Below are positions 17,307 through 63,519 of a DNA stretch of 64,000 bases, piece by piece; position 1 is the stretch's first letter; each line of letters opens with the position of its first letter. The stretch is from an uncultured Chloroflexia bacterium (GTDB taxonomy: Bacteria > Chloroflexota > Anaerolineae > CG2-30-64-16). The position numbers and the translations under genes are program-made. The stretch lies in the NCBI GenBank assembly GCA_963810095.1, contig CAWEMM010000012.1, positions 512,001-576,000 on the forward strand, given 5' to 3'. The notes beneath the pieces are model-generated. The model worked only from the letters and a program-made list of their open reading frames with translations, did no database searches and had not been told where the DNA came from.

Positions 17307-17307
17307 G

Positions 17308-29289: not shown

Positions 29290-29300
29290 CAGTAGACGAG

Positions 29301-29352: not shown

Positions 29353-29372
29353 GAATCTCTTCGAGGGGTAGC

Positions 29373-30889: not shown

Positions 30890-30916
30890 GGCCGGGCGGG
30901 AACAGGAGCAAAACGG

Positions 30917-31471: not shown

Positions 31472-31494
31472 GGGCGGTCAGGGGAGGGAAACGT

Positions 31495-32094: not shown

Positions 32095-32929
32095 CGAGCG
32101 GAAGATCCGCAAGGCGGCGACACTCGACGTAGACTGCGTGTGCCTGGACATGGAGGACGGCGTCGCGCTCAGCCGCAAGGACGACGCGTGGAGTCTGATC
32201 CCGGCCATGCTGCGAGAATTGCACTTCGCCAGGGCCGAAAGACTCGTGCGGATCAACCCCGTGGGGTCGGGGATGGAGGCGGAGGACCTGCGGGCGGCGC
32301 TCGAGGTCCGGCCAGACGGGATCGTGATCCCGAAGGTCGAGAGCGGGGACGCAATCCGCTGGGCCAGCGCTGAGATTGCGGCCTTCGAGCGGAGAAATGG
32401 CTGGGACGGCGGCCAGATCGCCATTATCGTGCTGGTGGAAACCGCGCTCGGGATCGTCAACCTGAGGGAGATCGCATCGAGCGACCCGCGGCTGCAGGCG
32501 CTCATCTTCGGCGCAGAAGACCTGGCGGGCGACATCGGCGCGGTACGGACGCGCGAGGGGTGGGAAGTGTTCTACGCCAGGAGCGCGGTGGTCACGCATG
32601 CCGCCGCGTTCGGGCTCCAGGCGATCGACATGGTGTATATTGACTATAGGGACACCGAGGGGCTGGTGACCGAGTCAGTGGAGGCCGCCCGGCTGGGGTA
32701 CGCGGGCAAGCAGGTGATCCACCCCAACCAGGTCGGGCCGGTGCAAGGCGCGTTTACGCCCGACGCCGGCGCCATTGCTCACGCAGAGCGGATCATGAAC
32801 GCGATGGCGCAGCACCAGGAGGCGGGGAAAGGCGCGTTCAGCCTCGATGGCAAGATGATCGACATGCCGCTCGTGAAGGCGGCCGAGCGGGTGCTGGCGC
32901 GGGCACGGGCCGCGGGGAAGGTCGCGTAA
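32054..32929 (+). CDS. CitE/HpcH-family CoA-ester lyase
   Basis: RRALLYMPG, LDMEDGV, VRIN, IPKVES, VETALG, FGAEDL, GKQVIHPNQV, DGKMIDMP. Confidence 0.9.
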   Translation: MRARRALLYMPGDDERKIRKAATLDVDCVCLDMEDGVALSRKDDAWSLIPAMLRELHFARAERLVRINPVGSGMEAEDLRAALEVRPDGIVIPKVESGDAIRWASAEIAAFERRNGWDGGQIAIIVLVETALGIVNLREIASSDPRLQALIFGAEDLAGDIGAVRTREGWEVFYARSAVVTHAAAFGLQAIDMVYIDYRDTEGLVTESVEAARLGYAGKQVIHPNQVGPVQGAFTPDAGAIAHAERIMNAMAQHQEAGKGAFSLDGKMIDMPLVKAAERVLARARAAGKVA

Positions 32930-43391: not shown

Positions 43392-44285
43392 GTGCGGATG
43401 CACGTACGCGAGATCGAGGCGAAGACCTTGCTCTCTGCCTGCGCGAAGCCCGATCCATGGTTCGGGATCAAGTACACGATGAACCTGTATCGGGGCTGCG
43501 GGCATCACTGCATCTACTGCGACAGCCGCAGCGAGTGCTACCAGATCGCGGACTTCGACGGCGAGGTGCTGGTCAAAGCGAACGCGCTGGAGTTGCTGAA
43601 GAAGGAACTGCCGCGAAAGCGCGTGAAAGGCTACGTCAGCACTGGATCGATGAACGATCCGTACCAGCCGCTCGAACGGGTGCGCGGCTTGACGCGCGGC
43701 GCGCTCGAGATCGTCGCGGCCCATCGCTTTCCCGTCCATATTATCACCAAGGGCGACCTCGTCGTGCGCGATGTCGACCTGTTGTGTGCGATCCGCGACG
43801 CAACGGGGCCACGCGGCGCGGTCGTCAGTTTTACCATTACGACGCCCGACGACGACCTCTCGCGAAGACTGGAGCCGGGCGCGCCGGCGTCGTCGGCCCG
43901 GTTTGCCGCCTTGGCAGCACTTGCCGCGCGCGGCCTTTGGGCCGGCGTCACCCTGATGCCCGTGCTGCCCTTGATCGAGGATGACGAGGAGAGCGTGCGG
44001 CGGCTCGTGGAGCGTGCCGCAGGGTGTGGAGCGAAGTATGTGATTCCGGCCTGGGGGCTGACGTTGCGGAACCGACAGCGCACGTACTATTACCAGCAAC
44101 TGGACCGGCTGTTTCCAGGGCTACGGGAAAAGTATGAGCGTGCATACCGGGAGCGGTACTCGGCCGGCTCGCCGAACGCGCGCCGGCTCGAAAGAGTTTT
44201 CGACGGGCTGGCCTCGGGCCATCGTCTCGAACGATGCGTACCTCCGTACCAACCCCCTGAGGCGGAGCAACTCGCCCTGTTCTGA
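43392..44285 (+). CDS. Radical SAM protein (spore photoproduct lyase-like)
   Basis: MNLYRGCGHHCIYCD (CxxxCxxC), GSMNDPYQPLE, LEPGAP. Confidence 0.88.
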   Translation: MRMHVREIEAKTLLSACAKPDPWFGIKYTMNLYRGCGHHCIYCDSRSECYQIADFDGEVLVKANALELLKKELPRKRVKGYVSTGSMNDPYQPLERVRGLTRGALEIVAAHRFPVHIITKGDLVVRDVDLLCAIRDATGPRGAVVSFTITTPDDDLSRRLEPGAPASSARFAALAALAARGLWAGVTLMPVLPLIEDDEESVRRLVERAAGCGAKYVIPAWGLTLRNRQRTYYYQQLDRLFPGLREKYERAYRERYSAGSPNARRLERVFDGLASGHRLERCVPPYQPPEAEQLALF

Positions 44286-45296
44286 CCCGCCAGCGCGGGC
44301 CTGAAGTCCGGTCGGGTTCAGGTCGCCCGAGCGTGCCGATCGCGCTCGCCGGCTCCGCCGCGCCGACCGCTGGTATTCGTCGAAGGCCACGGCCCCCAGG
44401 AGAATCAGCCCGCGCACGACGAACTGTGCGTAGATGCCCCAGCCGGCAAGCTGCATCCCATTGCCCAAGATCGCCAGCACGAACACGCCGGCCACGAGCG
44501 CAGGCACGTTGCCCTCGCCGCCCATGAAGCTAACCCCGCCCAGGATCGCGGCCGTCAGTGCCGTGAACTCCGTCCCCGGCCCGAAGGACGAGTGCGTCGT
44601 GTTTGCCTTGGAGACCATCACCATCGTTGCCACGGCGGTGAGGAAACCGCAGACCGTGTACGTGGAAATCTTGAGGAACTTGGTGTTCATCCCCGCAAGT
44701 CGCGACGCTTCTTCGTTGCCGCCCAGTCCGACGATCCGCAGCCCATAGACCGTTTGGTAGTATACAAGGCTCGCAACGACAACCACCGCGAGTGCCAGGA
44801 TTACGTCCAGCGGGACGCCAAGCACCTGGCCCTTCGTGATCACGAGAAACTGCTCAGGGTAGTTGCGGTACGTCTTGGATTGGCTGAGCATGTACGAGAT
44901 GCCCTGGAAGATGACAGCAGTGCCAAGCGTCGCAATAAGTGGGAAGATCTTCAGCCGAGTCACGATCAGGCCATTGACCAAGCCCAGAATCGTGCCCAGA
45001 ATCAGCCCGAGCAGGACCGCAGCCCACGGCGGCACGCCGTATACCGTCATCGCCATCGCGGTGACCACGCCGACAAGCGACATTTGGTAGCCGACCGACA
45101 AGTCCACGCCGCCGCCGATCATGACGAACGACAGCGCAACCGCCACGATTACGAAGTAGGTATTCTGCGTGACGATGTTGGTGAGGTTCCGGACCGTCAG
45201 GAAGTAGGGGCTGGAGAACGAAAACAGGGCCACCAGCGCGAACAGCACGAGCATGATGGCGTATTTTTGGAGGCCGCTGATTCTCGAATTCGACAT
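44121..45296 (-). CDS. Sugar (CUT2/RbsC-type) ABC permease; true 3' end probably near 44320
   Basis: GGVDLSVG, PLIATLG, GGNEEASRLAG, EFTALTAAILGGVSFMGGEG. Confidence 0.88.
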   Translation of the reverse strand: MSNSRISGLQKYAIMLVLFALVALFSFSSPYFLTVRNLTNIVTQNTYFVIVAVALSFVMIGGGVDLSVGYQMSLVGVVTAMAMTVYGVPPWAAVLLGLILGTILGLVNGLIVTRLKIFPLIATLGTAVIFQGISYMLSQSKTYRNYPEQFLVITKGQVLGVPLDVILALAVVVVASLVYYQTVYGLRIVGLGGNEEASRLAGMNTKFLKISTYTVCGFLTAVATMVMVSKANTTHSSFGPGTEFTALTAAILGGVSFMGGEGNVPALVAGVFVLAILGNGMQLAGWGIYAQFVVRGLILLGAVAFDEYQRSARRSRRARSARSGDLNPTGLQARAGGSEQGELLRLRGLVRRYASFETMARGQPVENSFEPARVRRAGRVPLPVCTLILFP

Positions 45297-45309
45297 ATTT
45301 CGGCGCGCC

Positions 45310-46100
45310 TTATCCAAATGACCGGTACTGGACTTCGGGTGCAGGGGTCCCGTTCTGGTCCTTGCCCTTGACGATCATCGTCACGACGTCGTCAAGGGTT
45401 ACCTTGCTCACGTCCATCACGTCCTGACGCTGGCCGCCTTTGAGGACGAAGACCCGATCGGCGATAGCGAGAACATCCGGGATCCGCTGCGTGATGAGCA
45501 GGACCGACAAACCGCGGTTTCGCAGGTCACGGATGAGCCCAAGCAGCTTGTTGGCCTCAGTAACTCCTAGGGCTGCAGTGGGCTCATCCATGATGAGGAT
45601 CTTGGAATCAAAGGCAATCGCGCGGGCGCATGCCACCATCTGTCGCTGACCGCCCGACATTCGCGCTGACGCTCATCCTGGGCGACTTAATGTCCACGCG
45701 GCAGTTCTTTGATCAGTTCCTCGGCCCGCCTGTACAGAGTCCGCTTGTCCAGAAACATCCCCAGCGGCCCGCGTGTACACTCTCGACCGATGAAGATGTT
45801 CCGGGCGACGTCAAGGTTGTTGAAGAGGGCGAGATCCTGGTAGATCATCGCGATCCCCATCCGGGCCGCATCCTGTGGGTTACGGATGTGCGCGACTTGC
45901 CCATCGATCAGAATGCTCCCCTCGTCGGGCAGGTGCGCGCCGGAGAGAACCTTCATCAGGGTCGACTTGCCGGCGCCGTTGTCGCCGACAAGCCCCATGA
46001 TTTCCCCCCGGCGCAGCTCCAGGTTCACATCCGCCAGCGCGCGCACGCCGCCGAAGCTTTTGCAGATGCTGCGCATCTCAACGACGTAGTCTGATTGCAT
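45310..46100 (-). CDS. Sugar ABC ATP-binding protein (single domain), frameshift near 45690
   Basis: [24 protein letters not shown]; [17 protein letters not shown]. Confidence 0.9.
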
Positions 46101-46148
46101 TGTGCCATCCAAGTGCGGCGCTCGATCCAAGTAGCTGTGGGCGCCCGC

Positions 46149-47369
46149 TCAGGGCGTTCCGCTGACGACGCCAGAGTTGGCGACCGGCTTCACATCCAGT
46201 TTGCCGTCTACCGCAGTCGCCAGAGCAAGCGGGTCCCAAGTGACCTCCGAAAAGGGCTCGCCGCTCAGGATCTTTTTGGCAATCGCAACGGTGGAGCCCG
46301 GCAGATCGCCGCCGCCGAAGGCCACCGCGCCCCTAAACGCGCCCTTGCCCTGGGCCGCCTCCATAATCGCGTCGCCTTCTGGCCCGAACATCCCGACGCC
46401 GAAGACTGCAACCTTGCTCAGGTCCTTGATTGCGCTGGCAGAACCCTTGGCAACCTCGTCCACGATCGCCTTCGAGGCGCCATTTCCGCCGTCAGACGCG
46501 TAGGCGACCACAAGTTTGACGTTCGGGTTGGTCGTGAGGACATTCTGCATCGCTGTCTGGCCCGCCTGAAACATCTCAGCGCTGGGGGTCTGCACGATCT
46601 TGACTGCCGGGCTATACACCGGGTTGGCGACCCGGTCTGCGTCGCCTTTGCCAGCGAGATAGTTCCCCTTCGCATCGGAGATCGCGACGCCCATTTTGTC
46701 GATCAGTTCGCCGGCCGAGTTTTTCAAGTAAGGTTCGCTGATCATCAACAGGCCGTTGGAGCGTTCGACCGCCTCGGGATTGAGCGACGAGAGAAAGACG
46801 ACGGTCTCGATCGAGCCGGGCGCGGCATCGGGATAGGTTTGCTCGACCCATCGCTTCGCCATCAGCGCAGCATACTCGCCTGCCAGGAACTGGTCCATCT
46901 TCATGACGGCGTCGCGGCCCGACTGCCCCGGCTCACCTCCGGCAACCATCACTTTGACCCCCGCCTTGCGAGCGGCCTCAAGCTTCGGCAGCAGGCTGCT
47001 GGCTTCAGCCGCCATGGCGAAGAGCAACTTGGGTTTCATGGCCGTGAAGTTCTCGACCTGGGTCGCCTGAGTGTTCGGGTTACCGTCCGCACTAGCTGTC
47101 TGGACGTCGTACTCGTTGCCGAACTCCTTGACGAACGCGTCGCGGAGCGCCAGCATCAGAGGGTTATCCATGGCAGGCAGCGCCACCGCAAGGAGCGGCT
47201 TACCCGTGTTCTCGGGCGGCACAGTTGCCGCCGGCGCCTCTTTCGCGGGTGCGGTTGTCGCCGCTGGTTGGGCCGGCGCGGGTGCTGCGGGCGGAGCCCC
47301 TGTGCACCCGGCAAGTAGGATCAGAATGCCGAGCAGCGCGAGGGTGAGCGTGAGGGACAGACGGTTCAT
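46149..47369 (-). CDS. Sugar-type ABC substrate-binding lipoprotein
   Basis: Lipobox LAGC, Pro/Ala linker, Peripla_BP pattern (PAMDNP, TQATQVENF, QTAMQNVLTTNPNV). Confidence 0.85.
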   Translation of the reverse strand: MNRLSLTLTLALLGILILLAGCTGAPPAAPAPAQPAATTAPAKEAPAATVPPENTGKPLLAVALPAMDNPLMLALRDAFVKEFGNEYDVQTASADGNPNTQATQVENFTAMKPKLLFAMAAEASSLLPKLEAARKAGVKVMVAGGEPGQSGRDAVMKMDQFLAGEYAALMAKRWVEQTYPDAAPGSIETVVFLSSLNPEAVERSNGLLMISEPYLKNSAGELIDKMGVAISDAKGNYLAGKGDADRVANPVYSPAVKIVQTPSAEMFQAGQTAMQNVLTTNPNVKLVVAYASDGGNGASKAIVDEVAKGSASAIKDLSKVAVFGVGMFGPEGDAIMEAAQGKGAFRGAVAFGGGDLPGSTVAIAKKILSGEPFSEVTWDPLALATAVDGKLDVKPVANSGVVSGTP

Positions 47370-47694: not shown

Positions 47695-48468
47695 GTGAAC
47701 AGAGATCCGAACGAATACAACGTGCGTGCGATCGAGCGCGCCCTCCAGATCCTGGAGTGCTTTGACGACGAGCATCCTGCGCGGGGCGTTTCGGAAATTG
47801 CCGAAGCGGTTGGCCTCCACAAGGCAACCACCCACCGCCTGATCACGACGCTGGCCAATCACGGCTATCTCGAGCGCCTCCCCGGCGAGCAGCATTACCG
47901 CCTCGGCATGCAATTGGCGACGCTGGGCTTGTCGATCCTGCGCGGCATGGATCTGCGCCGGGAGGCCGTGCCCTACATCGCGAACGTCGTGGCGCGCTGC
48001 GAGGAGACGTGCGACATGAGCGTGCTCGACCGGGGCGAGGCGTTGATCGTCGAGGTGATCCGCAGCCGGCACGTTCTCGCCATGGCGACGAGCGTCGGGC
48101 AGCGGCTCCCCCTGCACGCGACCGCCGGCGGCAAGGTGTTCCTCGCGTTTGCCCCCGAAGAGGAACGGGAGGCGCTGCTGGGGCGGCCGCTCAAGCGCTA
48201 CACGCCGAAGACGATCACGGACCCCGAGGTACTGCGCGAGGAAGCGGCGCGCTTCCTCGCGCAAGGGTATGCGTTTGACGACGAGGAATTCGAGGTGGGC
48301 GTGCGTGCGATCGCCGCACCCGTGCGGAATGCGCTCGACCAGGTCACGGCTGCGGTGAGTATGCCCGGACCGGTCACGCGCATCACGCCGGATCGCATCG
48401 CGGAAATCGGGCAGGCGATGATGGAGACGGCCAATGCGATCTCGCAGCGCCTGGGCTGGCGTGCCTAA
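47695..48468 (+). CDS. IclR-family transcriptional regulator
   Basis: VRAIERALQILE, GLHKATTHRL, GQRLPLHATAGGK, GYAFDDEEFEVGVRAIAAPV. Confidence 0.95.
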   Translation: MNRDPNEYNVRAIERALQILECFDDEHPARGVSEIAEAVGLHKATTHRLITTLANHGYLERLPGEQHYRLGMQLATLGLSILRGMDLRREAVPYIANVVARCEETCDMSVLDRGEALIVEVIRSRHVLAMATSVGQRLPLHATAGGKVFLAFAPEEEREALLGRPLKRYTPKTITDPEVLREEAARFLAQGYAFDDEEFEVGVRAIAAPVRNALDQVTAAVSMPGPVTRITPDRIAEIGQAMMETANAISQRLGWRA

Positions 48469-48491: not shown

Positions 48492-48526
48492 AGACGCCCG
48501 ACAGCACTTGCCGGGCGTCTACTTTT
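48492..48526. terminator. Intrinsic terminator between iclR and the convergent operon
   Basis: AGACGCCCG ... CGGGCGTCT followed by ACTTTTT. Confidence 0.7.
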
Positions 48527-48903
48527 TATCCAGCCGCGGCGGTCGGGATGTTGTGCTCTGACTGCATGACGCCTTCACGGAACTCCTGCACGTCCACCGA
48601 AAGCGAGAGGTAGCCCGTCGCGTACCGTTCGCCCAGCGTCTCTTTGAGCGCGCCGAAGACCCGGGCGGCGATCTCCTGCTGCACTTCGTGCGGCCGGCCC
48701 GCCTTGATCCACAGGGTGACATGGGCGAAAGCGTAGTCCGGGTTGCCGTCGCCCACGCGATACTCCGTCAGGCGAACCGCCCGGCTCTTGATAGCATTCT
48801 GCTTGATTGCGCCGGTTGCGGCCAGCTCCGCGTGCAGCCGGCCCAGCAGGGCCTGCACGTCGAAGACCAGGTTATCGGTATATTCCAGGGTCAGTTGTGG
48901 CAT
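48526..48903 (-). CDS. 5-carboxymethyl-2-hydroxymuconate isomerase (CHMI, tautomerase superfamily)
   Basis: MPQLTLEYTDNL (catalytic Pro-1), IKSRA, FAHVTLWIKAGR. Confidence 0.88.
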   Translation of the reverse strand: MPQLTLEYTDNLVFDVQALLGRLHAELAATGAIKQNAIKSRAVRLTEYRVGDGNPDYAFAHVTLWIKAGRPHEVQQEIAARVFGALKETLGERYATGYLSLSVDVQEFREGVMQSEHNIPTAAAG

Positions 48904-48941
48904 GATGCACCTCTTCGAGGTGAATGACCTCGTCTGGCCGC

Positions 48942-49898
48942 CTATTCTACCCGCGGGGTCCCGTGCTCGTGAAACGACGCGATCGTCTGCAAGCCCCAGG
49001 CCTGGCCCTTCTTGCGCTCGGCCTCGCTCCAGACCACTGCCGGCCAATCGGGCGCAAGGATCAGGCGGGCGCCTGCGTTCGCAACCTCGAAGCGATTCCC
49101 GCCCGGCTCATACAGGTATAGAAAGAAGGTCTGCTGGATGGCGTGCTTGTGCGGCCCGGTCTCGATGTGGACGCCGTGCTCCAGGCAGATGTCCGCCGCT
49201 CGCAGCACCTCTTCGCGGCTGTCCACCGCATACGTCACATGATGAAGCCTGCCGTGCGCGCCGTAACGGTCTTCGGCAATGGCCACGTCATACGACTTGT
49301 TGCATACCGTCAGCCACGCGCCCTTCTCAGATCCGTCGTCGAAGATGATCTGCTCGGTCAGCCGGCAGCCGAGCGCGTCCTGCATGAAGGCACGATTCGC
49401 GGCGACGTCTGCCGCCAGCAAGTTGATGTGGTCGATCCGGCGGACGTTCGCCCCCCGCCCCGGGAAACGCGAGGCCTGGTTCTTCAGCGCGGGGCGCAGC
49501 TCGGCCGGCGCCTGGTACCACTCGGTCTCGTAGTAGATCTGGAGGTGGTGGCCGTCGGGGTCACGGAACTCGTAGGCCGGACCGTGCCCCAGTTCGCCGT
49601 CGGTCCAGCCGGCGCCGAGGCCCGTGCGCTCGACCGCCGCGACGCGGCGCTCGAGGGCAGCCTGGCTCGTCGCGCGGAACGCGTAGTGCCCCAGCCCGGG
49701 CTGTTTGGCGGCGGTGAGCTTAAGCGTGTGATGCTCGTAATCGTCCCACCCGCGCAGGTAGACCGAATCGCCCTGGCGGCCGCTCTCGACCATGCCCATA
49801 ATGTCTTTGAAGAAATGCAGGCTCTCGTCGGGCAGGGGCGTCAGCATCTCGACGTGCGCCAGGTGTGCGAGATCATATATGGGTTCAGCACCGGCCAT
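48942..49898 (-). CDS. VOC-fold extradiol ring-cleavage dioxygenase (catechol 2,3-dioxygenase-like)
   Basis: HLAHVEM, VYLRGWDD, RRIDHINL, GRLHHV, GPHKHAI..FFLYLYEPGGNRFE. Confidence 0.92.
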   Translation of the reverse strand: MAGAEPIYDLAHLAHVEMLTPLPDESLHFFKDIMGMVESGRQGDSVYLRGWDDYEHHTLKLTAAKQPGLGHYAFRATSQAALERRVAAVERTGLGAGWTDGELGHGPAYEFRDPDGHHLQIYYETEWYQAPAELRPALKNQASRFPGRGANVRRIDHINLLAADVAANRAFMQDALGCRLTEQIIFDDGSEKGAWLTVCNKSYDVAIAEDRYGAHGRLHHVTYAVDSREEVLRAADICLEHGVHIETGPHKHAIQQTFFLYLYEPGGNRFEVANAGARLILAPDWPAVVWSEAERKKGQAWGLQTIASFHEHGTPRVE

Positions 49899-49899
49899 C

Positions 49900-50541
49900 T
49901 TATCCTCCCCGGTTGCTCTCGACCACTGCCCGCAGACCGTGAACGTCGTAGGTCTGCGCACCGTCGAGCAAGCGTCCCCGCAGCGCATCTTCGCGCGCAC
50001 TGCGGGCGGCAGCGGCTTCGAGCACTTCCGTCGTGCGGGCGGCGGGAACACACACCGCCCCGTCCGCATCCAAAACGAGCAGGTCGCCTGGCGAAATGCG
50101 CATCCCGCCCACGGTCACCGGCACGTCCAGCCCGCCCACGATGTCCTTCGTTGCACCTTTGACCCGCACGTAGCGCGCCCAAATGGGCAGGCCGACGCGC
50201 GCCAGTTCGTCGTAGTCGCGAATGGCTGCGTCGACCAGCACGCCGGCCGCATGCCGCACGCGCACCTGGATCGCGAGCAGCTCGCCCATGAGCGCCACGG
50301 GCCGCGGCTCAGGCATGGTCAGCACCACGATGTCGCCGGGCTCGATCCGCTCGATTGCCGCGTGGACCATCAGGTTGTCGTCCTGGCCGCACGCGACCGT
50401 CCGTGCCGGCCCGGCAACCGAGCTCTGCGGCACGACCTGGATCAGAGGGACGTCGATGAGCCCTTCCCGGCCGCCGGCTTCATACACCGTCGCGACGCCG
50501 AGCGCCGCGAACCGGCTGCACATCTCTTTATCTACAGGCAT
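49900..50541 (-). CDS. galC: 4-carboxy-4-hydroxy-2-oxoadipate / HMG aldolase (RraA family)
   Basis: LGVATVYEA, AGPARTV..GQDDNLMVH, MGELLA, DAAIRD, PGDLLVLDADG. Confidence 0.85.
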   Translation of the reverse strand: MPVDKEMCSRFAALGVATVYEAGGREGLIDVPLIQVVPQSSVAGPARTVACGQDDNLMVHAAIERIEPGDIVVLTMPEPRPVALMGELLAIQVRVRHAAGVLVDAAIRDYDELARVGLPIWARYVRVKGATKDIVGGLDVPVTVGGMRISPGDLLVLDADGAVCVPAARTTEVLEAAAARSAREDALRGRLLDGAQTYDVHGLRAVVESNRGG

Positions 50542-51248
50542 GTCACCACCCAAGGCAGCGTCCGCTGCAGCGCTTCGGCGTAGCGAACCTCCTCGCGGCC
50601 GGCAATGCGTCGGGCATGGTTGCCGCGGCGTGCGGCCAGGTCCGTATAGTAGCTCTGCAAGTATGCCTGCGCCTTCATCGCGGCCATCGCCTCGACCTTG
50701 CGACTGAAGACAGGCGTGATGTCGAGAAACGTATTGGGCGTGAAGCCACACAGCTCGGGTTGGTGCGGCTCAAAATAGTAGAGGTCCGGGGGTGTAATCC
50801 GGTCGAAGGCGCTGGCCACGCCCGCGCCCGCAGCCAACAGCCGCGCTTTCTGCACCGCCTCACACGCGACGGGATGGTCGGGATTGAACGGGTCGACGGG
50901 GGTGTGCGTGAGCACGATCGTTGGCCGCCACTGCCGGAACAGCGCCACCAGCGCGTCGAGTGCCCCCCCATCCACGACGAGGGGGTAGTCGCCCAGGTCC
51001 AGGCAGCGGAACGACGCACCGACCGCGGCCGCGGCCGCCTCCGCTTCCGCGTGGCGGATCTGCTTGACGTTTTCGACCGTCTGGCCGGGCCGCTTCCACA
51101 GCTCGCCCGATTCGCCCCGCTCGCCGTACGAAAGCGCGACGACCTCGGCCAGCCCGCCTTGCGCCACGGTCACGGCTATTGCGCCCGCGGCCCGCCAGAC
51201 AAAATCCGCGGCGTGCGCGCCGATGACCAGCAAACGTTGTTCCGCCAA
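50532..51248 (-). CDS. galB: 4-oxalomesaconate hydratase (PIG-L family)
   Basis: GAHAADFVWR, LSYGERGES.LW, DPFNPDHP, FEPHQPE..GF.P, K.EAM..M.AQ.YL. Confidence 0.9.
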   Translation of the reverse strand: MAEQRLLVIGAHAADFVWRAAGAIAVTVAQGGLAEVVALSYGERGESGELWKRPGQTVENVKQIRHAEAEAAAAAVGASFRCLDLGDYPLVVDGGALDALVALFRQWRPTIVLTHTPVDPFNPDHPVACEAVQKARLLAAGAGVASAFDRITPPDLYYFEPHQPELCGFTPNTFLDITPVFSRKVEAMAAMKAQAYLQSYYTDLAARRGNHARRIAGREEVRYAEALQRTLPWVVTCL

Positions 51249-51269: not shown

Positions 51270-51320
51270 AAAAACCAGGTTTCTGCGCCAGCTTCGCTAG
51301 CGTGGAGAAACCTGGTTTCT
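51270..51320. repeat. AGAAACC(A/T)GGTTTCT REP-like doublet
   Basis: AAAAACCAGGTTTCT (51270-51284) and AGAAACCTGGTTTCT (51306-51320), each self-palindromic. Confidence 0.7.
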
Positions 51321-51323
51321 GGA

Positions 51324-52245
51324 CTATTGTGCGACCGTCTTCCGGCAGCCATCCAGGAAGTCCAGCACCCGGGCGACATTCTCGGGCGTCTCGAAGGCCG
51401 GGTCCGCGTGGCCCGCGCCTTCGAGCAGTTCCAGGGTGACCGGGACGCCCGGCGGCTTCGAGTTTGGCGGCCAGGTTGACGGACTGCTGAACCGGGACGA
51501 TGGCATCCTGCGTGCCGTGCTGGAGGAGGAAGGGCGGCAGTCCGGCCCGCACATAGCTCTCGGGGTTCGCCCGCGCCACCAGCTCGGGGGCCTCGGTGAT
51601 GGTGTGGCCCAGCAGCAGCGATTCGGGCGAGTGCGGCTCGTCGTGTCGCAGGCCGGGCGGCGGCAGCAGGCCGCTTTCGGCAAGCTGCGCGTCCATCTTG
51701 AGGAAATCGGTCGGGCCGAACCAGGCCACTACCGCCTGCACGGCTGAGCTTTCCCCGCCGTGGCCCAGGTTCGCGTCCTCCAGCTCGGCCACTCCGCCGG
51801 AAACGCCGGCCATGGTCGCCTGCCACCCGCCCGCCGAGCCGCCCCACGCGGCGATCCAACGCGGGTCCAGACCGTACTCGGCCGCGTGCCCGCGGAGCCA
51901 GCGGATCGCGGCTTTCAGATCCTGGATCAGCGCGGGGAATTTTGCCTCGCCGCTCAGCCGGTAGTTGACCGCGGCCACGGCATACCCCCGCTTCAGGCCC
52001 TCGAGCATGGGCAACACCTGCACGTCGCCCTTGTCGCAGCCCATGAAGGCGCCGCCGTGGATCGACAGGACTACGGGGAATGGACCCGGCCCCTGGTCGG
52101 GCAGGTACAGGTCCAACCGCTGTGCGGTTGACAGGGGCGCGTACTGCAGGTCGATGAACTTCCGCTTGATGTAGCGGGTATCGGCGGGGGGCGGTGGCTC
52201 TGGCACCGCGTAATGTTCGCCTCGGTCCTGGCTGTTTGGGATCAT
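51324..52245 (-). CDS. Alpha/beta-hydrolase, HSL/family-IV esterase, frameshift near 51455
   Basis: LDLYLP, IHGGAF, VNYRLS, WGGSAGG, LLQHGTQDAIVP, EGAGH. Confidence 0.9.
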
Positions 52246-52294: not shown

Positions 52295-53299
52295 TCACGC
52301 CGAGACCCTCGCGACGGTCTCCTTGGCCTTCCGGTTCTTCTGGTAGGTATCGAAGCCGACCGCGGCCAGAAGGACAACACCTTTCACGACGTTCTGTGAG
52401 AAATCAGGGAAACTGGCAAGCTGCATGGCGTTGTTGAGCACGCCGATGATGAGCACGCCCGTTATGAGGCCGAAGATCGACCCTTCACCCCCGATGAAGC
52501 TGACACCGCCCAGCAGCGCAGCCGTCAGGCAGTCGAACTCAATGCCGGCACCCGTCGAGACCTGGCCGGCAAAAACCCGCGACAGCAGCAGGATCGAGGT
52601 GATGGCGGATGCGAAGCCGCAAATCGCAAACAGCATCAGCTTCATGCGGTTGGTGTTCACGCCCGCAAGGCGGGCCGCTTCGGCGTTGCCGCCCAGCGCA
52701 AAGGTAAACCGCCCGAAGTACGTCTTCACGAGCACGAAGTTGGCGATCAAAGCCACGATAATCATGACCACAATGGGCACCGGGATCGGACCCAGGTAGC
52801 CCTGGCCGAAGAACCGGAAGACATTCGGGAAGCCCATGATGTTTCTGGAGTTGGCGATGATGTACCCGACGCCCTTGTAAATCGACGCGGTGCCCAGCGT
52901 CACGATCAACGGGTGAACTTTCAGCTTAATCGAGAGCAGCCCATTCACCGCGCCCAGTGCCGTCCCCAACACCAGAATCAGCGGGATGGCGACGCCAAGC
53001 GGAACTTTGGCGTAGGCGAGCATGATGGACAAGACGATGTTGGTGAGAATGATCTGCGACCCGATGGAGAGGTCAATGGCCCCGCCGACCATCACGAACA
53101 TCAGACCCACCGCGCTGATCGCGACGAAGGAGACCTGCCGGACCAGGATGACGAGGTTATAGGGTGTCAGGAAATTGGGCGAGATGATGGAGAAGAGGAT
53201 CACGAGGCCCAGCAGGATCATCTGTGGGGCGAATTTTTGCAGGCGCGTGCCGATGCCAACGCCCGTTCTGGAAACAGGTACGCTCTGGCTATTCATCAT
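52295..53299 (-). CDS. Sugar (RbsC-type) ABC permease
   Basis: GAIDLSIG, PLIVTLG, ALGGNAEAARLAG, AALLGGVSFIGGEG. Confidence 0.92.
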   Translation of the reverse strand: MMNSQSVPVSRTGVGIGTRLQKFAPQMILLGLVILFSIISPNFLTPYNLVILVRQVSFVAISAVGLMFVMVGGAIDLSIGSQIILTNIVLSIMLAYAKVPLGVAIPLILVLGTALGAVNGLLSIKLKVHPLIVTLGTASIYKGVGYIIANSRNIMGFPNVFRFFGQGYLGPIPVPIVVMIIVALIANFVLVKTYFGRFTFALGGNAEAARLAGVNTNRMKLMLFAICGFASAITSILLLSRVFAGQVSTGAGIEFDCLTAALLGGVSFIGGEGSIFGLITGVLIIGVLNNAMQLASFPDFSQNVVKGVVLLAAVGFDTYQKNRKAKETVARVSA

Positions 53300-53306: not shown

Positions 53307-54795
53307 CTAATGTACGCCCGACGCGAGGTCGAGAATATGATCCTGGCTGAACTCCGCCCGGGTTACCTCGCCGGCCAGCCGGCCTTCACACAGCACGATG
53401 ATCCTGTCTGACATGCCGAGCAACTCCTCCATGTCGGACGAAATCATCAGGATCGCGATCCCGCTGTTGGCTAACTCGCACATGAGGTTGTAGATTTCCT
53501 GCTTAGCGCCGACGTCGATGCCGCGGGTGGGCTCGTCAAAGATCAGTATGCTGGAGTCGGCGGCGAGGGCCTTGGCCAGAACCACCTTCTGCTGGTTCCC
53601 GCCGCTCAGGTTGATCACCCGCTGCAACAGGCTTGGCGTCTTGATGTTGATCCGCTGTCTGTACTTCTCGGCGATCTCGTTCTCGGCCCGCGTATCGACG
53701 ACGCCGCGCTTGGAGAGCCTGCGGACGATCGGAAAGCTGATGTTCCACCCCACGCCCATTTCGAGGAAGAGCCCTTGCCCCTTGCGGTCTTCAGTCAGCA
53801 GCCCGATGCCATTCTGCATGGCATCTTGGGGCGACCGGAGCCGTACCGGCTTGCCGCCGACGAGTATTTCGCCGCTCTCGGCCGGCACCGCGCCGAACAG
53901 CAGCATGGCCAGCTCGGTCCTTCCTGCGCCGACCAGGCCCGAGATTCCCAAGATCTCGCCCTTGCGGACCGAGAAAGAGATATCACGGTCGCCGTTGCCC
54001 GTGAGGCTGCGCACCTCGAGCGCCACCTCGCCCGGCGCGGCTGCCCGCTGCGGGTAAGTCTCCTTCAGTTCGCGGCCCACCATCAGGCCGATCAGTTCCT
54101 TGCGATTGGTGTCCTGCGTCAGCCTGGTCGCCACGTACCTTCCGTCGCGCAAGACGGACACCCGATCGGAGATCCGGAAGACTTCCTCAAGCCGGTGCGA
54201 AATGTAGATCACAGTCACCCCGTCCTGCTTGAGGCGCCGTGATGATTTCAAACATGTGCTCCACTTCCGAAACCGAAAGCGGTGCGCTCGGCTCGTCCAT
54301 GATCAGGATCCTGACGTTCTTGGACACGGCCTTGGCGATTTCGACGATCTGCTGTTTCGCCGGCGGCAGATCCCGAACGAGGGCATCCGGATCGATATCG
54401 ACGTTGAAGAGCTTGAATAGCTCGCGTGTTTTGCTCTTCATGGTCGCGTAATCGACCAGCGCGGATTTGCTCACCCGGTCGCCCAGAAAAATGTTCTCGG
54501 CAACCGACATGGTGGGCACGAGGTTAAATTCCTGGTAGATGACCTCGATCCCCAGGCTCCTGGAGAGGTGCGGGGTCATGTTCGGGCATTCGTGCCCGTT
54601 CACGGTGATGAGCCCGCCGTCGAGACCAATCGCGCCCGCAACGGCCTTGATGAGCGTGGACTTGCCCGCGCCGTTTTCGCCCAGCAACGCGTGGACTTCG
54701 CCCGCCACGAAGCCAAGCGAGACGCGATCGAGGGCTAACACGCCGGGGTACTTCTTGGTGATATCTTTGAGAGAGAGAACGACATCGGCATTCAT
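53307..54795 (-). CDS. Sugar ABC ATP-binding protein (RbsA-type, two domains), frameshift near 54240
   Basis: [15 protein letters not shown]; [22 protein letters not shown]. Confidence 0.92.
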
Positions 54796-54822
54796 GTGCG
54801 CAGCAGCCTCGGTGGTGGCCTT

Positions 54823-54894
54823 CAACACAAAGACACAAAGGCATCACTTGAAGCAGGTAGGCTTCAGTGCTTGTGCCCTTGTGTCTTTGGGTTG
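54823..54894. repeat. REP-like palindrome (CACAAAG family)
   Basis: CAACACAAAGACACAAAGGCA ... TGCCCTTGTGTCTTTGGGTTG. Confidence 0.72.
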
Positions 54895-54902: not shown

Positions 54903-55960
54903 CTACTTGACTTCGCAGAAGATCGGCTCCAACACGTCGTTGGTGATCTTCGGGTATTCGACGCCCTGCATGACCTTCTTCAGCAGATCGTAGGTCACCT
55001 GGTCAAGGTTCGTGCCGCCGATGGCGACGAGGCCCTTGTACGGGTCCTTGCAGCTCTTGACGGTCTCGATCATGGTCGGATCCATGTCGCCCGCAAAGAC
55101 GGCGTACTTCGAGATGTCGACGTTCGGCAAGGCCTTGATGGTCTGGGCAACGCCCTGCGCATGCGCGCTGGACGACGCCAGGATGACCTTGACGTTCGGA
55201 TGCGCGGTCAGGATGTTCTCGGCCGTGCTGGCTCCGATTTGCATGCCCTCAGTCGAGATATCGACGAACTGCACCATGTTGGCCTTGGGGCAGCTTTTCG
55301 GCGATGGTGCGCATGCCCTGGGCCCGCAGCTTCATCTGCAGGTCGCCCGACTCGTTGCCGATAATGGCCACGTCGACACTTTTCTCCTTGGCGTCGGGGA
55401 ACGTCTTGGTGATGAAGTCGCATGCCATCTGGGCCATCTTGGTGCCGTCTTCGAGTTGGTCGGTGTGCATGATCGCGTCAAAGGGCTTCAGTTCCCCAGG
55501 CGGGACGCCGATGACCTTAATGCCCTTCTTTTGGGCTTCTTCGACGGCGGGCAGCACGTTCTCGATGGAGCCCGGAGCCATGACGATCATCGCCTTAATG
55601 CCCATCGAGATGCAGTTCTCGATCTGGGCATACTGTTGGGTTGCCCCGCCGTCGTCGGCGCCGAAGACGGACACTTCAACGCCGTCGGCCGCCGCCTTGG
55701 CCTTGACCGAATTGGCCAGGTTGTTGAGGAAGGTGTTGGACAGCGCAGGAATCAGGTAGCAGGCCTTCTGCCCCTTGATGTCGGCGCTGGGGCCGGCGGC
55801 TGCAGCAGGCGCTTGGGTGGGTTCGGGGGCCTTGGTGGGCTCGGCCACGGGGGCCTGGGTGGGCGCCGCGGCGGGAGCCGCGGTCGGAGCGGGTGCAGCA
55901 CAACCCGCGAGGAGCGCAAGTGTGAGGACGACCAGTACGACCGTGTACAGTGGTCTTCAT
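54903..55960 (-). CDS. Sugar-type ABC substrate-binding lipoprotein (frameshifted)
   Basis: ATG 55960 with AAGGAG RBS, lipobox-like LLAGC, Pro/Ala linker, PALSNTF, QYAQIEN, AENILTAHPNV. Confidence 0.85.
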
Positions 55961-60649: not shown

Positions 60650-62512
60650 ATGAAGTCGAGCAAAGTCGTGACCCTCGTCCTGTCCATCGTGTTGCTGCTC
60701 ACGCTGCTGCCCAGCATGGTCGGGGCGCAAGGGGCGGACCCCCTGGCCCTACCGGCTGCGCCTGCGGGAACGCTGGCCGTGACCGTTGACGGCACCCCCC
60801 TGACCCTGACGTACTATCGGGTGATCTACGTGGCGAACCCCGTCCCCGTGAAGAACCCCCAAGGCGGAGCCGTCACGTACGATTACGAGACGATGAACAT
60901 CTACATCCCGTCGAACGCCACCGCCGATTCGCCCGTCATCCTGCAGATTAGCAACAGCGGTTGGATGCCCAGCAAAGTGCCGGCCGTGATCGCGAACGGT
61001 GCGAGCTACGCCAGCGCCGCCAACCAGACCGGCGCGGCGTTCAAGGCCGGGTATGTGATCGCGGCCGCCGGCACCCGCAGCCGCAGCTTGCAAGACATGG
61101 ACGGCGCATATGTCGGGCATGCGCCCGCCGTGGTCGTGGACACCAAGGCGGCGATCCGCTACCTCCGACACAACGATCCCGCCATGCTCGGCACCACCGA
61201 GCGCCTCTTCATCACCGGGACGAGCGGCGGCGGCGGCCTCTCCGTGGCCATCTCGGCCAGCGGCAACAGCCCGGCCTACTTCCCCTACCTGAACGCGATC
61301 GGGGCGGCCGGCGTCGGCTATGACGCAGCGAGCGGCAAATACGCCTCCACACTCCGCGACGACGTGTTCGGGACCGTGGCCTACTGCCCGATCACGGACC
61401 TGAACAACGCGGACGCGGCCTATGAGTGGACCTACAACAACACCCGGAAGGAGCTCGGCATCTATTCCGAAGATCAGATGGCGGCCTCCGAGTGGCTGAT
61501 GGACGATTACGTCCCCTACTTCAACAAGCTGGGCTTGCGGGATCAGAACCGTAAGCGGCTGGTGGCCGATAATCTGGACGAGGCCATCACGAAGATCGTC
61601 GAGAAGGAGATTGAGGAAGCGTACGTCGAAGTGGGTCCGACCCAGATGGCCGCCGACATCAATGCCCTGGCCTACAAGGACAACAGCTGGTACTCGGTCG
61701 ACGCGAACGGCAAGGCGACCCTGGACTATGACAAGTACCTGTACTTCGTCGTCCAGAACAAGGCCCTCAAGACGCCGCCGGCGTTCGACAACTACAAGTC
61801 GGTGCTGCAGGGCCAGATGAACGAGTCGAACCTGGCCGGCACCTCGACGCAGGAATACAGCCCCTTCTCCGAGTGGGCGTGGGAGCATAACGGCGCGGCC
61901 GGCGATGGCGTGGGCTCGGACGACGTGGGTCTGCCCTGGGACGCCTACGTCCAAACGGACGCGGGCAAGGCGGTGGTGCAGCAGATGGACATGGTCGACC
62001 CCATGCCGTACGTGCTCAATGCCAAGAACGGCGACAGTGCGCCGTACTGGTATTACCGGCATGGCATGATCGACCGCGACACGTCCTTTGCAGTCGAAGT
62101 CGGTCTCTACTACGCGATCCTGACCTCGCGCAGCGTCCAAAACGTGAATTTCGAGCTGGCGTGGCTCAAGCCGCATTCGGGCAACTACGACGTGCCGGAG
62201 GCCTACGAATGGGTGGCCGAAGCTGTCGAGAATGCGAACACCTTCGACGCGGTCGACGCACTGATCGGCGATACGGTGACCGAGGGCTTCAGCCTCCCCA
62301 CCGGACCCGGCATCACTTACACCAGCAGCAATCCGAGCGTCTTCAACGTCGTGGACGGCCAGGCCAGCGTGAACCGGCCCAACAAAAAAGATGCCACCGT
62401 GGTGTTGGCAGTCCGTGTCGTTAGCGACGGCGTCGCCGGCAACGGCTACAACTACGGCCGGGTCGACGTGACCCGCACCTTCACGTTCGTCGTGCCGGCC
62501 GCGGGCAAGTAG
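60650..62512 (+). CDS. Secreted subtype-B tannase (tannin acyl hydrolase) with C-terminal Ig-like domain
   Basis: Signal peptide; YVANP, MNIYIP, AGTRSR, VVDTKAAIRYLR, GTSGGG, YCPITDLNNADAAYEW, YRHGMIDRDTS, NFELAWLKPHSGNYD, all matching lactobacillus-type tannase motifs. Confidence 0.85.
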   Translation: MKSSKVVTLVLSIVLLLTLLPSMVGAQGADPLALPAAPAGTLAVTVDGTPLTLTYYRVIYVANPVPVKNPQGGAVTYDYETMNIYIPSNATADSPVILQISNSGWMPSKVPAVIANGASYASAANQTGAAFKAGYVIAAAGTRSRSLQDMDGAYVGHAPAVVVDTKAAIRYLRHNDPAMLGTTERLFITGTSGGGGLSVAISASGNSPAYFPYLNAIGAAGVGYDAASGKYASTLRDDVFGTVAYCPITDLNNADAAYEWTYNNTRKELGIYSEDQMAASEWLMDDYVPYFNKLGLRDQNRKRLVADNLDEAITKIVEKEIEEAYVEVGPTQMAADINALAYKDNSWYSVDANGKATLDYDKYLYFVVQNKALKTPPAFDNYKSVLQGQMNESNLAGTSTQEYSPFSEWAWEHNGAAGDGVGSDDVGLPWDAYVQTDAGKAVVQQMDMVDPMPYVLNAKNGDSAPYWYYRHGMIDRDTSFAVEVGLYYAILTSRSVQNVNFELAWLKPHSGNYDVPEAYEWVAEAVENANTFDAVDALIGDTVTEGFSLPTGPGITYTSSNPSVFNVVDGQASVNRPNKKDATVVLAVRVVSDGVAGNGYNYGRVDVTRTFTFVVPAAGK

Positions 62513-62543
62513 CAAGCCGGCCCTGATTTTCCAGACACGGGAT

Positions 62544-62578
62544 GCAGCCTTCGGGCGGTCCGTCGGCCCGAGGGCTGC
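62544..62578 (+). terminator. Hairpin downstream of the tannase gene
   Basis: GCAGCCTTCGGGC ... GCCCGAGGGCTGC; no U-tract. Confidence 0.55.
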
Positions 62579-62595
62579 GCCTCGCTCCATGCTTA

Positions 62596-62682
62596 GAATC
62601 TATCCGAACATGCTCTGCCGCTGTCCGACGGAGCCAGACGGGCACGGTCAGAGACCGGCCCGGCCAATTCTCGGCTAGATAC
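62596..62682. mobile_element. Candidate 87-bp MITE
   Basis: Imperfect TIRs GAATCTATCCGA / TCGGCTAGATAC (10 of 12 match) flanked on both sides by TTA. Confidence 0.45.
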
Positions 62683-62701
62683 TTACGCTAAAACCTGCCA
62701 C

Positions 62702-62773
62702 TTGACACGGGATGCACAATGTGATAATGTGCCTCCGTATCACATAACAAAACTTTGTCTCATATAATAAGAC
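62702..62773 (+). promoter_or_regulatory. Promoter of the nitroreductase operon with tandem boxes
   Basis: TTGACA (62702-62707), 17 nt, TGa-TAATGT (62725-62730); boxes GTATCACATAACAAAAC (62737-62753) and GTCTCATATAATAAGAC (62757-62773). Confidence 0.82.
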
Positions 62774-62835
62774 AAGCGACCTCGACGGGCATGCCACGCT
62801 CGCCCCGTTCTGCGATCTCAACAAGGAGGTAAGGG

Positions 62836-63519
62836 ATGCCAGAAACGTATTCGCTTGAGGACGCCGCCATGAAGGTCATTCTGGACCGCCGCAGCGTCCG
62901 CGAGTTCACCTCAGAGCCTGTATCAGACGAGGACCTGGACAAGATCCTGGAGGCCGGGCGACAGGCTCCGTCGGGCGAGAACGCGCAGCCGTGGCGGTTC
63001 ATCGTGGTGAAGAGCGAAGCGACCCGCAAGGCCCTGGCGGCGTTGTCGGGCGGCGGCAGCGGCCGGCGGTTCACGGCCGAGTTCGTTACCAAGCAAATGC
63101 AGGAACGTTTCGCCAACCTGCAGGACGAGGCGAAGAAGCGTGCCGCCTTCGAAAAGCTCACTTCGGGCCAAGTCTCCGCCTTTGTCGGCGACGCCCCGGT
63201 CATCCTGGTCGTCGTGGGCAAGAAGGACGTCTGGGACCTGCCCTACGACACCTCTGCCGCCATCGAAAACATGCTGTTGATGATCACCGCGCTCGGCTTG
63301 GGCGCCTGCTGGGTGATCGCCCCCTGTATCGACATCCGCGACGAATTGCAGATCAAGGAGATGCTCGCGATCCCGGAGGGCTTCAAGGCCATTAGCCTGA
63401 TTTCGGTGGGCCATCCCTCTCGCCCGCATCGTCCGCGGCCCCGCCTCCCCATCACACAGATCGTTTACGCCGAAGCCTGGGGCGCGCCCTACTACAAACC
63501 GGCGGAGGAAAAAGCATGA
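62836..63519 (+). CDS. Nitroreductase-family flavoprotein
   Basis: AAGGAGG RBS; RRSVREF, APSGENAQPWRFIVV, DTSAAIENMLL..LGLGACW. Confidence 0.93.
   Translation: MPETYSLEDAAMKVILDRRSVREFTSEPVSDEDLDKILEAGRQAPSGENAQPWRFIVVKSEATRKALAALSGGGSGRRFTAEFVTKQMQERFANLQDEAKKRAAFEKLTSGQVSAFVGDAPVILVVVGKKDVWDLPYDTSAAIENMLLMITALGLGACWVIAPCIDIRDELQIKEMLAIPEGFKAISLISVGHPSRPHRPRPRLPITQIVYAEAWGAPYYKPAEEKA

Follow-up and report, generated by a model that had tools for sequence, protein, structure and literature searches.

A galB–galC operon of an uncultured Chloroflexia bacterium pairs a Tyr-type VOC extradiol dioxygenase with a CHMI-family isomerase in a candidate route for gallate catabolism

Gallate, the monomeric unit of hydrolysable tannins, is also the compound in which syringyl-lignin demethylation ends. 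Because gallate bears a hydroxyl on C5, cleavage of its C4–C5 bond directly yields 4-carboxy-2-hydroxymuconate (CHMA)/4-oxalomesaconate (OMA); from protocatechuate a semialdehyde arises, for which LigC and LigI are required. Pseudomonas putida KT2440 degrades gallate through GalA, GalD, GalB and GalC, and its gallate system includes GalR, a LysR-type regulator, as well as a porin and an MFS transporter; the corresponding enzymes of Sphingobium sp. SYK-6 are LigAB/DesB/DesZ, LigC, LigI, LigU, LigJ and LigK. To our knowledge, no enzymes other than those of the LigB fold are at present credited with aerobic gallate cleavage. AromaDeg, in the accessible part of its description, places gallate dioxygenases in the LigB superfamily only (PMC4250580). 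The accessible part of the account of Pseudomonas sp. NGC7 gives a scheme in which 4-carboxy-2-hydroxy-6-methoxy-6-oxohexa-2,4-dienoate (CHMOD) is converted to CHMA by an α/β-hydrolase, MgaC or DesC, and CHMA to OMA by MgaD (putative); GalD/LigU then yields 2-keto-4-carboxy-3-hexenedioate (KCH), GalB/LigJ converts KCH to CHA (4-carboxy-4-hydroxy-2-oxoadipate), and GalC/LigK splits CHA into pyruvate and oxaloacetate (PMC12314914). According to the same account, deletion of galD abolishes growth of this strain on syringate (PMC12314914). Here we describe a four-gene operon, galB–galC–VOC dioxygenase–CHMI, in a 64,000-nucleotide stretch of DNA (the window) from an uncultured Chloroflexia bacterium (GenBank assembly GCA_963810095.1, contig CAWEMM010000012.1, positions 512,001 to 576,000). 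We consider it probable, from gene content and sequence comparison, that the operon encodes a catabolic route for gallate or a close 5-substituted protocatechuate, in which a known lower pathway would be served by non-orthologous enzymes for the first two steps.

The operon lies on the minus strand of the window at 48526–51248. Its first gene (50532–51248, 238 aa, TTG start preceded by a GAGGAGG site) encodes a galB-type hydratase of the PIG-L/LmbE fold, a predicted OMA/KCH hydratase. It is followed by a gene for a galC/ligK-type, RraA-like class II aldolase (49900–50541, 213 aa), a predicted CHA aldolase/oxaloacetate decarboxylase, and by that for a VOC (type I) extradiol dioxygenase of the Tyr203 type (48942–49898, 318 aa), which we propose cleaves the gallate ring. 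The last gene (48526–48903, 125 aa) encodes an isomerase of the CHMI family (tautomerase superfamily) with an N-terminal proline, proposed to convert CHMA or OMA to KCH. By open reading frame (ORF) coordinates, galB and galC overlap by 10 nt, galC and the dioxygenase gene are 1 nt apart, and 38 nt containing a GAAGAGG site precede CHMI. The array named in the original prediction is therefore present at its coordinates, intact and tightly packed. All four products align end to end with homologs, and tblastn found each gene in a single copy in the genome.

Compared with the KT2440 pathway, GalB and GalC are homologous and the end products would be the same, but the ring-opening enzyme is a VOC protein in place of the LigB-fold GalA, the isomerase is of the CHMI family in place of the PrpF-fold GalD, the regulator is of the IclR family and uptake would be by ABC transport. 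The proposed route shares OMA, KCH and CHA and a LigK-type aldolase with SYK-6, whereas no LigAB, DesB, DesZ, LigI or LigU was found here, the operon is without LigC, and the hydratase is of the GalB type and not an amidohydrolase such as LigJ. The NGC7 system (MgaAB, MgaC and MgaD, plus GalD, GalB and GalC), as far as its accessible description goes, likewise has an α/β-hydrolase and an extra small isomerase, together with a ring-cleavage enzyme, upstream of GalB/GalC, but MgaAB is LigAB-like and MgaD SnoaL-like where the present locus has VOC and CHMI folds (PMC12314914). By this comparison of fold assignments, the ring-cleavage and isomerase steps appear to be filled by different folds in different lineages.

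On sequence grounds, GalB and GalC are clear homologs of solved P. putida enzymes. The GalB-like protein matches PF02585 (PIG-L) with 69.3 bits and P. putida OMA hydratase (5cgz) with an E value of 7.4e-60 over residues 6–235 of 238, the AHxADF, GERGES and DPxNxDH stretches being kept in the alignment; no NCBIfam GalB model matched. The GalC-like protein matches PF03737 with 115 bits and the 4-hydroxy-4-methyl-2-oxoglutarate/CHA aldolase 3noj with an E value of 1.3e-36, with the Arg–Asp pair aligned, and scores 163.9 bits against TIGR02798 (cut-off 304.5).

The dioxygenase contains two tandem VOC domains (PF00903, 72.9 bits in two stretches). Its AlphaFold2 model (pLDDT 92.5) superimposes in Foldseek with a TM-score of 0.93 on AphC (3lm4/7q2a), and AphC (7q2a, with 4-ethylcatechol), the nearest characterised enzyme, is only 38% identical. 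With AphC, XylE (1mpy), LapB (3hpv) and homoprotocatechuate 2,3-dioxygenase (HPCD; 1q0c) it shares the two-domain VOC fold and the 2-His-1-carboxylate triad: H157, H220 and E271 align with H153, H214 and E265 of XylE, and H252 and Y261 with XylE H246 and Y255. We aligned 201 sequences, namely the query, those of 80 related loci and 120 database proteins, with numbering counted along the alignment; the triad is invariant in 201 of 201, and H252 and Y261 are also invariant. The enzyme differs from AphC, XylE, LapB and HPCD (23–38% identity) in having Tyr for the second-sphere His, extra Lys, Arg and His residues, and a galB/galC context instead of a semialdehyde pathway. Specifically, Tyr203 stands at the position of XylE His199/HPCD His200, which we take to be the second-sphere acid–base catalyst, in all 201 family sequences and in PDB 9wgj, whereas the structures 3lm4, 7q2a, 3hpv and 1mpy have His there. 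One variant of HPCD at His200 is reported to turn to cleavage of the intradiol type when given an alternative substrate.

Tyr203 marks a subfamily. Among 49 near-full-length representatives of clusters at 50% identity, the position is Tyr in 10, His in 31 and another residue or a gap in 8. K201, H250, R278, R295 and K297 co-occur with Tyr203 and are replaced in the His-type relatives, and the Tyr-type sequences form one clade in a quick maximum-likelihood tree (SH-aLRT 99). One locus (L051) was dropped, its VOC fragment being shorter than 290 aa. The subfamily is large and strongly conserved, with 7,970 proteins at E ≤ 1e-30, the best 120 of which are 72–91% identical across phyla; at least 592 genome stretches of a species-representative collection encode relatives. 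The best solved match, PDB 9WGJ ('catechol 1,2-dioxygenase', E = 7.7e-115), has an NKSYD motif with Tyr at the His position and by its sequence is a member of the Tyr203-type subfamily; no paper on it was found in the literature searched. The C23O of Bacillus ligniniphilus is, in the accessible part of its description (PMC8671467), a 3-alkylcatechol enzyme; it could not be linked to the Tyr203 subfamily. The original prediction held that the 'catechol 2,3-dioxygenase' is a convergent VOC-fold gallate dioxygenase; with Tyr in place of the catalytic His and extra conserved basic residues, the protein is no ordinary catechol 2,3-dioxygenase. These features argue against a plain catechol enzyme and appear compatible with an anionic, more oxygenated substrate.

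Taken literally, the database annotation would make this protein a catechol, alkylcatechol or homoprotocatechuate 2,3-dioxygenase, CHMI a remnant of the homoprotocatechuate pathway, and the position of galB and galC meaningless. The protein does score 343.9 bits against the NCBIfam equivalog TIGR03211 ('catechol 2,3-dioxygenase'), above the cut-off of 320.2, which weighs against a gallate enzyme, and HpaD is its second-best NCBIfam model; CHMI belongs to the isomerase family of the homoprotocatechuate pathway. Yet the catalytic His is replaced, the 62 scanned window ORFs include no 2-hydroxymuconate semialdehyde dehydrogenase or hydrolase, 4-oxalocrotonate tautomerase (4-OT) or decarboxylase (4-OD), hydratase or aldolase of a meta pathway, the operon contains no decarboxylase, HpaH or HpaI, and the linkage to galB/galC recurs across phyla in different gene orders, with the genes translationally coupled. 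The literal annotation is, in our estimation, highly improbable, and its homoprotocatechuate form was rejected on the HpaD score (188 bits, cut-off 321) and on context.

The CHMI-family protein begins MPQL and matches PF02962 with 91.4 bits (cut-off 26.5), 4jcu with an E value of 6.4e-16 and Escherichia coli CHMI (1otg) with one of 1.1e-11; Pro-1 and two Arg residues are kept in the alignment with 1otg. With HpcD/HpaF (1otg, 4jcu) it shares the Pfam family, Pro-1 and the expected conversion of a 2-hydroxy-2,4-dienoate to a 2-oxo-3-enoate, but it is far below the cut-off of the HpcD equivalog NF011605 (59.9 bits versus 215), homoprotocatechuate genes are lacking here, and the proposed substrate bears a 4-carboxyl and not a 5-carboxymethyl group. 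Neither a second copy in the genome nor hpa/hpc genes among the scanned window ORFs were found. CHMI and 4-OT ketonise 2-hydroxy-2,4-dienoates to 2-oxo-3-enoates through Pro-1.

The same gene follows the dioxygenase wherever this arrangement could be followed in the class. Of 301 genomes sampled from this class, which may partly coincide with the genomes behind loci L002–L081, six, this one included, have a dioxygenase ortholog (at least 76% identity), and CHMI starts within about 120 nt downstream in all six. The ortholog is absent from the nine other genomes of the family in the sample; the operon is thus an accessory one with a patchy distribution. The proposal that CHMI acts as an OMA tautomerase gains from these six genomes and from the 10 of 10 loci described below in which it follows the dioxygenase gene, but in current nomenclature it would more likely convert CHMA to KCH directly than act on OMA only.

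CHMI genes occur in six further sampled genomes, in none of them in a homoprotocatechuate pathway. One scanned g8 locus with both flanks has CHMI beside a UbiA prenyltransferase gene, and in genome G273 its neighbours are unrelated. Another Anaerolineae genus carries CHMI in five of five sampled genomes, and at G174:C131 and G141:C120 (L086 and L087) it stands beside UbiA with no aromatic catabolic gene. In this class, then, the CHMI family has two or more roles.

A substrate without a carboxyl group is also conceivable. Cleavage of pyrogallol would give 2-hydroxymuconate, which CHMI would ketonise as 4-OT does; hydration and cleavage by the GalB/GalC homologs would then lead to pyruvate and malonate semialdehyde. 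This chemistry parallels the gallate route and requires no dehydrogenase; CHMI and 4-OT act on 2-hydroxymuconates, and the name given to 9wgj would suit a cut between two hydroxylated carbons. We nevertheless regard pyrogallol as very unlikely: GalB and GalC are close to enzymes for 4-carboxylated intermediates, the extra basic residues of the subfamily suggest an anionic substrate, and in other phyla the neighbours include a true OMA tautomerase and LigM.

These neighbours come from a comparison of the 80 best related loci (designated by L numbers), with 7 kb on each side of the dioxygenase gene where available. Within that distance 41 loci have galB and 40 have galC; 45 have one or both, in no fewer than four gene orders. 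Other phyla show this linkage again, and the association of the VOC gene with galB/galC is therefore not due to chance. In the Anaerolineae-type order of the window (type A), galB–galC–VOC–CHMI, CHMI is present in all 10 loci with downstream sequence (the sequence of L051 stops within the dioxygenase gene). Ahead of these clusters there is often either an aromatic-acid-type ABC transporter (Peripla_BP_6) together with a reductive-dehalogenase-like Fe-S protein (five loci) or a DUF1932 gene (three loci). Type B, in Bradyrhizobium-like Alphaproteobacteria (about 25 loci), has a LigI-like lactonase gene some way ahead of galB–galC, which are followed by a 4,5-dihydroxyphthalate-decarboxylase-like gene and then VOC. 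Type C (Acidobacteria and Enterovirga, four loci) reads VOC–galB–galC–PrpF–DUF1932, and type D (L071 and L077) reads DUF1932–DUF6282–galB–(galC)–VOC–LigM-like–MTHFR, with FTHFS in L071. The sole PrpF protein scanned, that of L063, scores 527 bits against the OMA-tautomerase equivalog NF033377 (cut-off 440), and a LigM equivalog lies nearby (NF047885, 761 bits, cut-off 580); LigM-like genes are also present in L058, L071 and L077. In some genomes, then, the VOC enzyme fills the GalA slot beside a true OMA tautomerase and LigM. LigM and the MetF-like and FTHFS-like genes of related loci are shared with SYK-6 pathways.

Further neighbours, in L002, L014, L004, L012 and L068, point to plant polyphenols. 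L002 carries a tannase-family gene (PF07519, E = 2.7e-115) and an ortholog of the window's sugar-type substrate-binding protein. PobA-, PcaL- and PcaB-like genes adjoin the cluster of L068, and protocatechuate there thus has a separate ortho route.

A GMC oxidoreductase and a C-glycoside deglycosidase β subunit follow the cluster of L004 (L004:8344-10370). Bergenin is a C-glycoside of a gallate derivative, and C-glycosides of this kind could supply substrate at that locus. Directly 5′ of galB in five type-A clusters is a gene for a 380–470-aa Fe-S protein (L002:4509-5654, L003:4099-5496, L006, L012:4193-5413 and L051), of which the L002 protein exceeds the cut-off of the reductive-dehalogenase subfamily model TIGR02486 (167.8, cut-off 160.35). 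These proteins give a hint of halogenated hydroxybenzoate inputs; 5-halo-protocatechuates also give a diacid on 4,5-cleavage. In L052 (6293-6976) and 24 other Alphaproteobacteria loci, the gene between galC and the dioxygenase gene has no Pfam or NCBIfam match and resembles 4,5-dihydroxyphthalate decarboxylase (9jp7, E = 4.6e-16), which suggests that the Bradyrhizobium version may be fed by decarboxylation. A protein with NAD_binding_2 and DUF1932 domains accompanies the dioxygenase or galB across phyla (for example L063:10615-11550, L065, L057/L058, L004, L008, L068, L071, L077, L007 and L076); its best solved relatives, 4ezb and 3qsg, are structural-genomics proteins, and the pathway formally needs no redox step. 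The DUF6282 gene between the DUF1932 gene and galB (L071:3980-4903 and L077:1528-2442), for whose product no solved relative was found by sequence at E values up to 1, could encode an unrecognised pathway hydrolase.

The genome (6.13 Mb in 16 contigs; window about 65% G+C) is 88.5% complete, and the nearest relatives of the window genes are in metagenome-assembled genomes of Anaerolineae/Anaerolineales. Pfam scans of 62 window ORFs (7 + 55) gave no LigB, LigA, PrpF or Amidohydro_2 match, in agreement with the statement that the window has no LigAB/GalA-type, PrpF or LigI-like gene. In the genome as a whole, PrpF (PF04303) has no match, and LigB (PF02900) has one, a 280-aa protein that matches the YgiD 4,5-DOPA extradiol dioxygenase equivalog (NF007914, 280.4 bits, cut-off 233). 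Five Amidohydro_2 genes lie outside the window, two resembling L-fucono-1,5-lactonases and three without an NCBIfam model match; none resembles the LigI-like lactonase of the related loci. Searches of the genome by tblastn with proteins of related loci did not find an OMA tautomerase, LigM, a tannase of the PF07519 type, the DUF1932 protein, the LigI-like lactonase, DUF6282 or the reductive-dehalogenase-like protein. A search of the genome with the DUF1932 family model also gave no match, but control genomes gave none either. As to galA, galD or ligCI elsewhere in the genome, the searches returned no galA, ligAB, galD or LigI-like gene; LigC belongs to a generic dehydrogenase family for which no specific search is possible. 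Five further type-A genomes have no PrpF match, and one of the five has a LigB-family match, a 268-aa frame; a LigB-family match was likewise present in one of five type-C/D genomes.

Several results, in addition to the TIGR03211 score, weigh against a gallate route. At 88.5% completeness and with frameshifted ORFs, the absences are no proof. The GalC-like protein scores 174.5 bits against the CHA aldolase model NF006731, just under the cut-off of 179. No galB or galC lies within 7 kb in 35 of the 80 relatives, mostly a Bradyrhizobium subclade nested in type-B sequences. The closest non-Chloroflexota relatives, L071 and L077, have neither CHMI nor PrpF, and the tautomerase may therefore be dispensable. 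A tannase-family gene occurs in only one of the 80 loci, and an esterase beside galB in only one other locus (L014). Finally, the neighbours include the DUF1932 NAD-binding protein in 15 of the 80 loci, the LigI-like lactonase in 12 and the 4,5-dihydroxyphthalate-decarboxylase-like gene in 25, which would suit protocatechuate over gallate as the substrate of the family. On such a reading the enzyme would be a VOC-fold protocatechuate 4,5-dioxygenase, with unrecognised enzymes elsewhere performing the LigC and LigI steps. The DUF1932 and lactonase genes, and DUF6282 in two of the 80 loci, adjoin galB/galC; LigM also yields protocatechuate from vanillate, and LigAB accepts both protocatechuate and gallate. 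In this genome, however, homologs of DUF1932, the LigI-like lactonase and DUF6282 were not found in the searches above, two of the five Amidohydro_2 genes look like sugar lactonases, and the operon is without a dehydrogenase; L068, moreover, has its protocatechuate ortho pathway beside the cluster. We therefore judge protocatechuate to be quite an unlikely substrate.

For gallate, the proposed route would run as follows. The Fe(II)- or Mn(II)-dependent VOC dioxygenase would bind the 3,4-diol and cut the C4–C5 bond to give CHMA, the enol of OMA; the product would be a diacid because C5 bears an oxygen substituent, and no dehydrogenase or lactonase would then be needed. CHMI, with Pro-1 as base, would ketonise the dienol CHMA to KCH, a 2-oxo-3-ene, and so replace both MgaD and the PrpF-fold GalD/LigU. 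GalB would convert KCH to CHA, which GalC would split into pyruvate and oxaloacetate. The predicted VOC-fold gallate dioxygenase is supported by its gene context, the Tyr signature and the linkage to galB/galC across phyla, although this evidence does not distinguish gallate from protocatechuate, from 3-O-methylgallate and further 5-substituted protocatechuates, or from pyrogallol. A more specific proposal, to which we give slightly less than an even chance, is that the Tyr203-type VOC enzymes, all of which bear the label 'catechol 2,3-dioxygenase', represent a separate origin of gallate ring cleavage, in which the His-to-Tyr change would adapt the enzyme to a cut between oxygenated carbons and, in Chloroflexota, CHMI would bypass OMA and GalD, giving a complete, hitherto undescribed upper half of the pathway.

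The flanks of the operon suggest how it may be regulated. An IclR-family regulator gene (47695–48468, plus strand; PF01614 and PF09339) is convergent with the operon; its product scores 185.6 bits against the PcaR/PcaU subfamily model, under the cut-off, and IclR genes also adjoin the clusters of L002, L014 and L073. Two palindromes, GAAACC-N-GGTTT(C/T), lie at 51271–51283 and 51307–51319 in the 74-nt gap 5′ of galB, which separates its start from the stop of the esterase gene. The window has no further copy of the motif; the two correspond to 4 strand-hits, where 0.14 are expected by chance. From position and family, the palindromes are probably the operator of the IclR regulator, which probably represses the operon there. 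A GC-rich inverted repeat directly past the CHMI stop (48493–48519, minus strand) is a possible terminator; a promoter/terminator scan returned nothing usable for the operon, and it missed this repeat because the repeat has no T-run.

Upstream, on the same strand, lies a gene for a BD-FAE/carbohydrate-esterase-like α/β-hydrolase (51324–52245; PF20434, 211 bits), which among solved structures is closest to carbohydrate and acetyl-xylan esterases. The C-terminus, ending ...GAGHADPAF...VAQ*, is masked by what looks like a +1 frameshift in a run of GGG near 51448. The counterparts of this esterase are two paralogs at the equivalent position in L014, which has three BD-FAE esterases overall. Beyond the esterase, also on the minus strand, are genes for an ABC transporter permease (52295–53299; PF02653), an ATPase with two ABC domains in two ORFs with an apparent frameshift (53307–54828; PF00005 in both pieces), and the substrate-binding protein of a CUT2 (sugar-type) transporter (54903–55848; PF13407, Peripla_BP_4), again split by an apparent frameshift (54903–55277 and 55249–55848). 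Orthologs of the permease, 70% identical, adjoin the clusters of L006, L012 and L014, and those of the substrate-binding protein, 52–59% identical, adjoin L002, L006 and L012, so that orthologs of this transporter accompany four related clusters in all. By position and family, the transporter and esterase probably supply gallate from galloyl esters.

The hydrolase also admits a reading in which the VOC enzyme cleaves 3-O-methylgallate, the α/β-hydrolase is the CHMOD methyl-esterase, analogous to MgaC/DesC, and CHMI is the analogue of MgaD/GalD. In the accessible part of the NGC7 account, two unrelated α/β-fold hydrolases serve as CHMOD esterases beside ring-cleavage genes, in Pseudomonas sp. 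NGC7 and N. aromaticivorans (PMC12314914), and here, as in L014, such a hydrolase is directly upstream. A SnoaL_4 protein of the MgaD family (PF13577) is encoded right after CHMI in L012, and LigM-type demethylases in four loci provide a methoxylated-aromatic context. On the other hand, no LigM/DesA-type demethylase was found in this genome in a search that did not extend to Rieske-type VanAB, the solved relatives of the esterase act on carbohydrates or acetyl-xylan, and its gene stands upstream of the operator palindromes with the sugar-type transporter and is present in only two of about 12 type-A clusters. We consider 3-O-methylgallate unlikely as the substrate. The SnoaL_4 gene of L012 is at 8271-8936, directly after CHMI, and an ORF of the same length is found at L006:8277-8942.

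The literature searched contained no account of a gallate dioxygenase with a VOC fold, nor of a CHMI-type OMA/CHMA tautomerase; most subscription journals lay outside this search. A large enzyme family is probably wrongly labelled in databases. If the gallate assignment is correct, a widespread and highly conserved family is mis-annotated in Chloroflexota, in Bradyrhizobium and other Alphaproteobacteria, and in Acidobacteria, and surveys based on galA, desB and ligAB would set too low the capacity of soil and sediment bacteria to degrade tannin and lignin. Mechanistic enzymology would then have in this family a natural parallel to the HPCD His200 variants, which have been studied so much, and CHMI would be a second fold for OMA/CHMA isomerisation, of use in engineering routes to pyruvate and oxaloacetate or to products of the 2-pyrone-4,6-dicarboxylate (PDC) type.

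Several genes of the window are split into overlapping ORFs, namely the esterase C-terminus (51440–51455), two ABC ATPases (45310–46130 and 53307–54828) and one substrate-binding protein (54903–55848). These look like homopolymer errors of a long-read assembly, not pseudogenes, and such errors may also lower the completeness estimate. Beyond the IclR gene is a second CUT2-type ABC transporter (46149–47369, 45310–46130 and 44121–45317), whose substrate-binding protein is 27% identical to the first. At 60650–63519 a protein of 620 aa, which contains part of a BD-FAE domain, is followed by a nitroreductase, which is 76% identical to one adjoining the L014 cluster (L014:12573-13247), so that synteny with L014 reaches past the operon. 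Three other gene groups fit a plant-polymer-degrading lifestyle: genes for mannan and acetyl-xylan use at 1598–7366 and 25233–27275 (AXE1, two GH130, an N-acylglucosamine 2-epimerase-family gene, PF07221, and GH26), a long glycosyltransferase/exopolysaccharide cluster at 7823–25136, and, at 27631–32929, a group of genes for an acyl-CoA carboxylase, a MaoC hydratase and a lyase of the HpcH/HpaI type.

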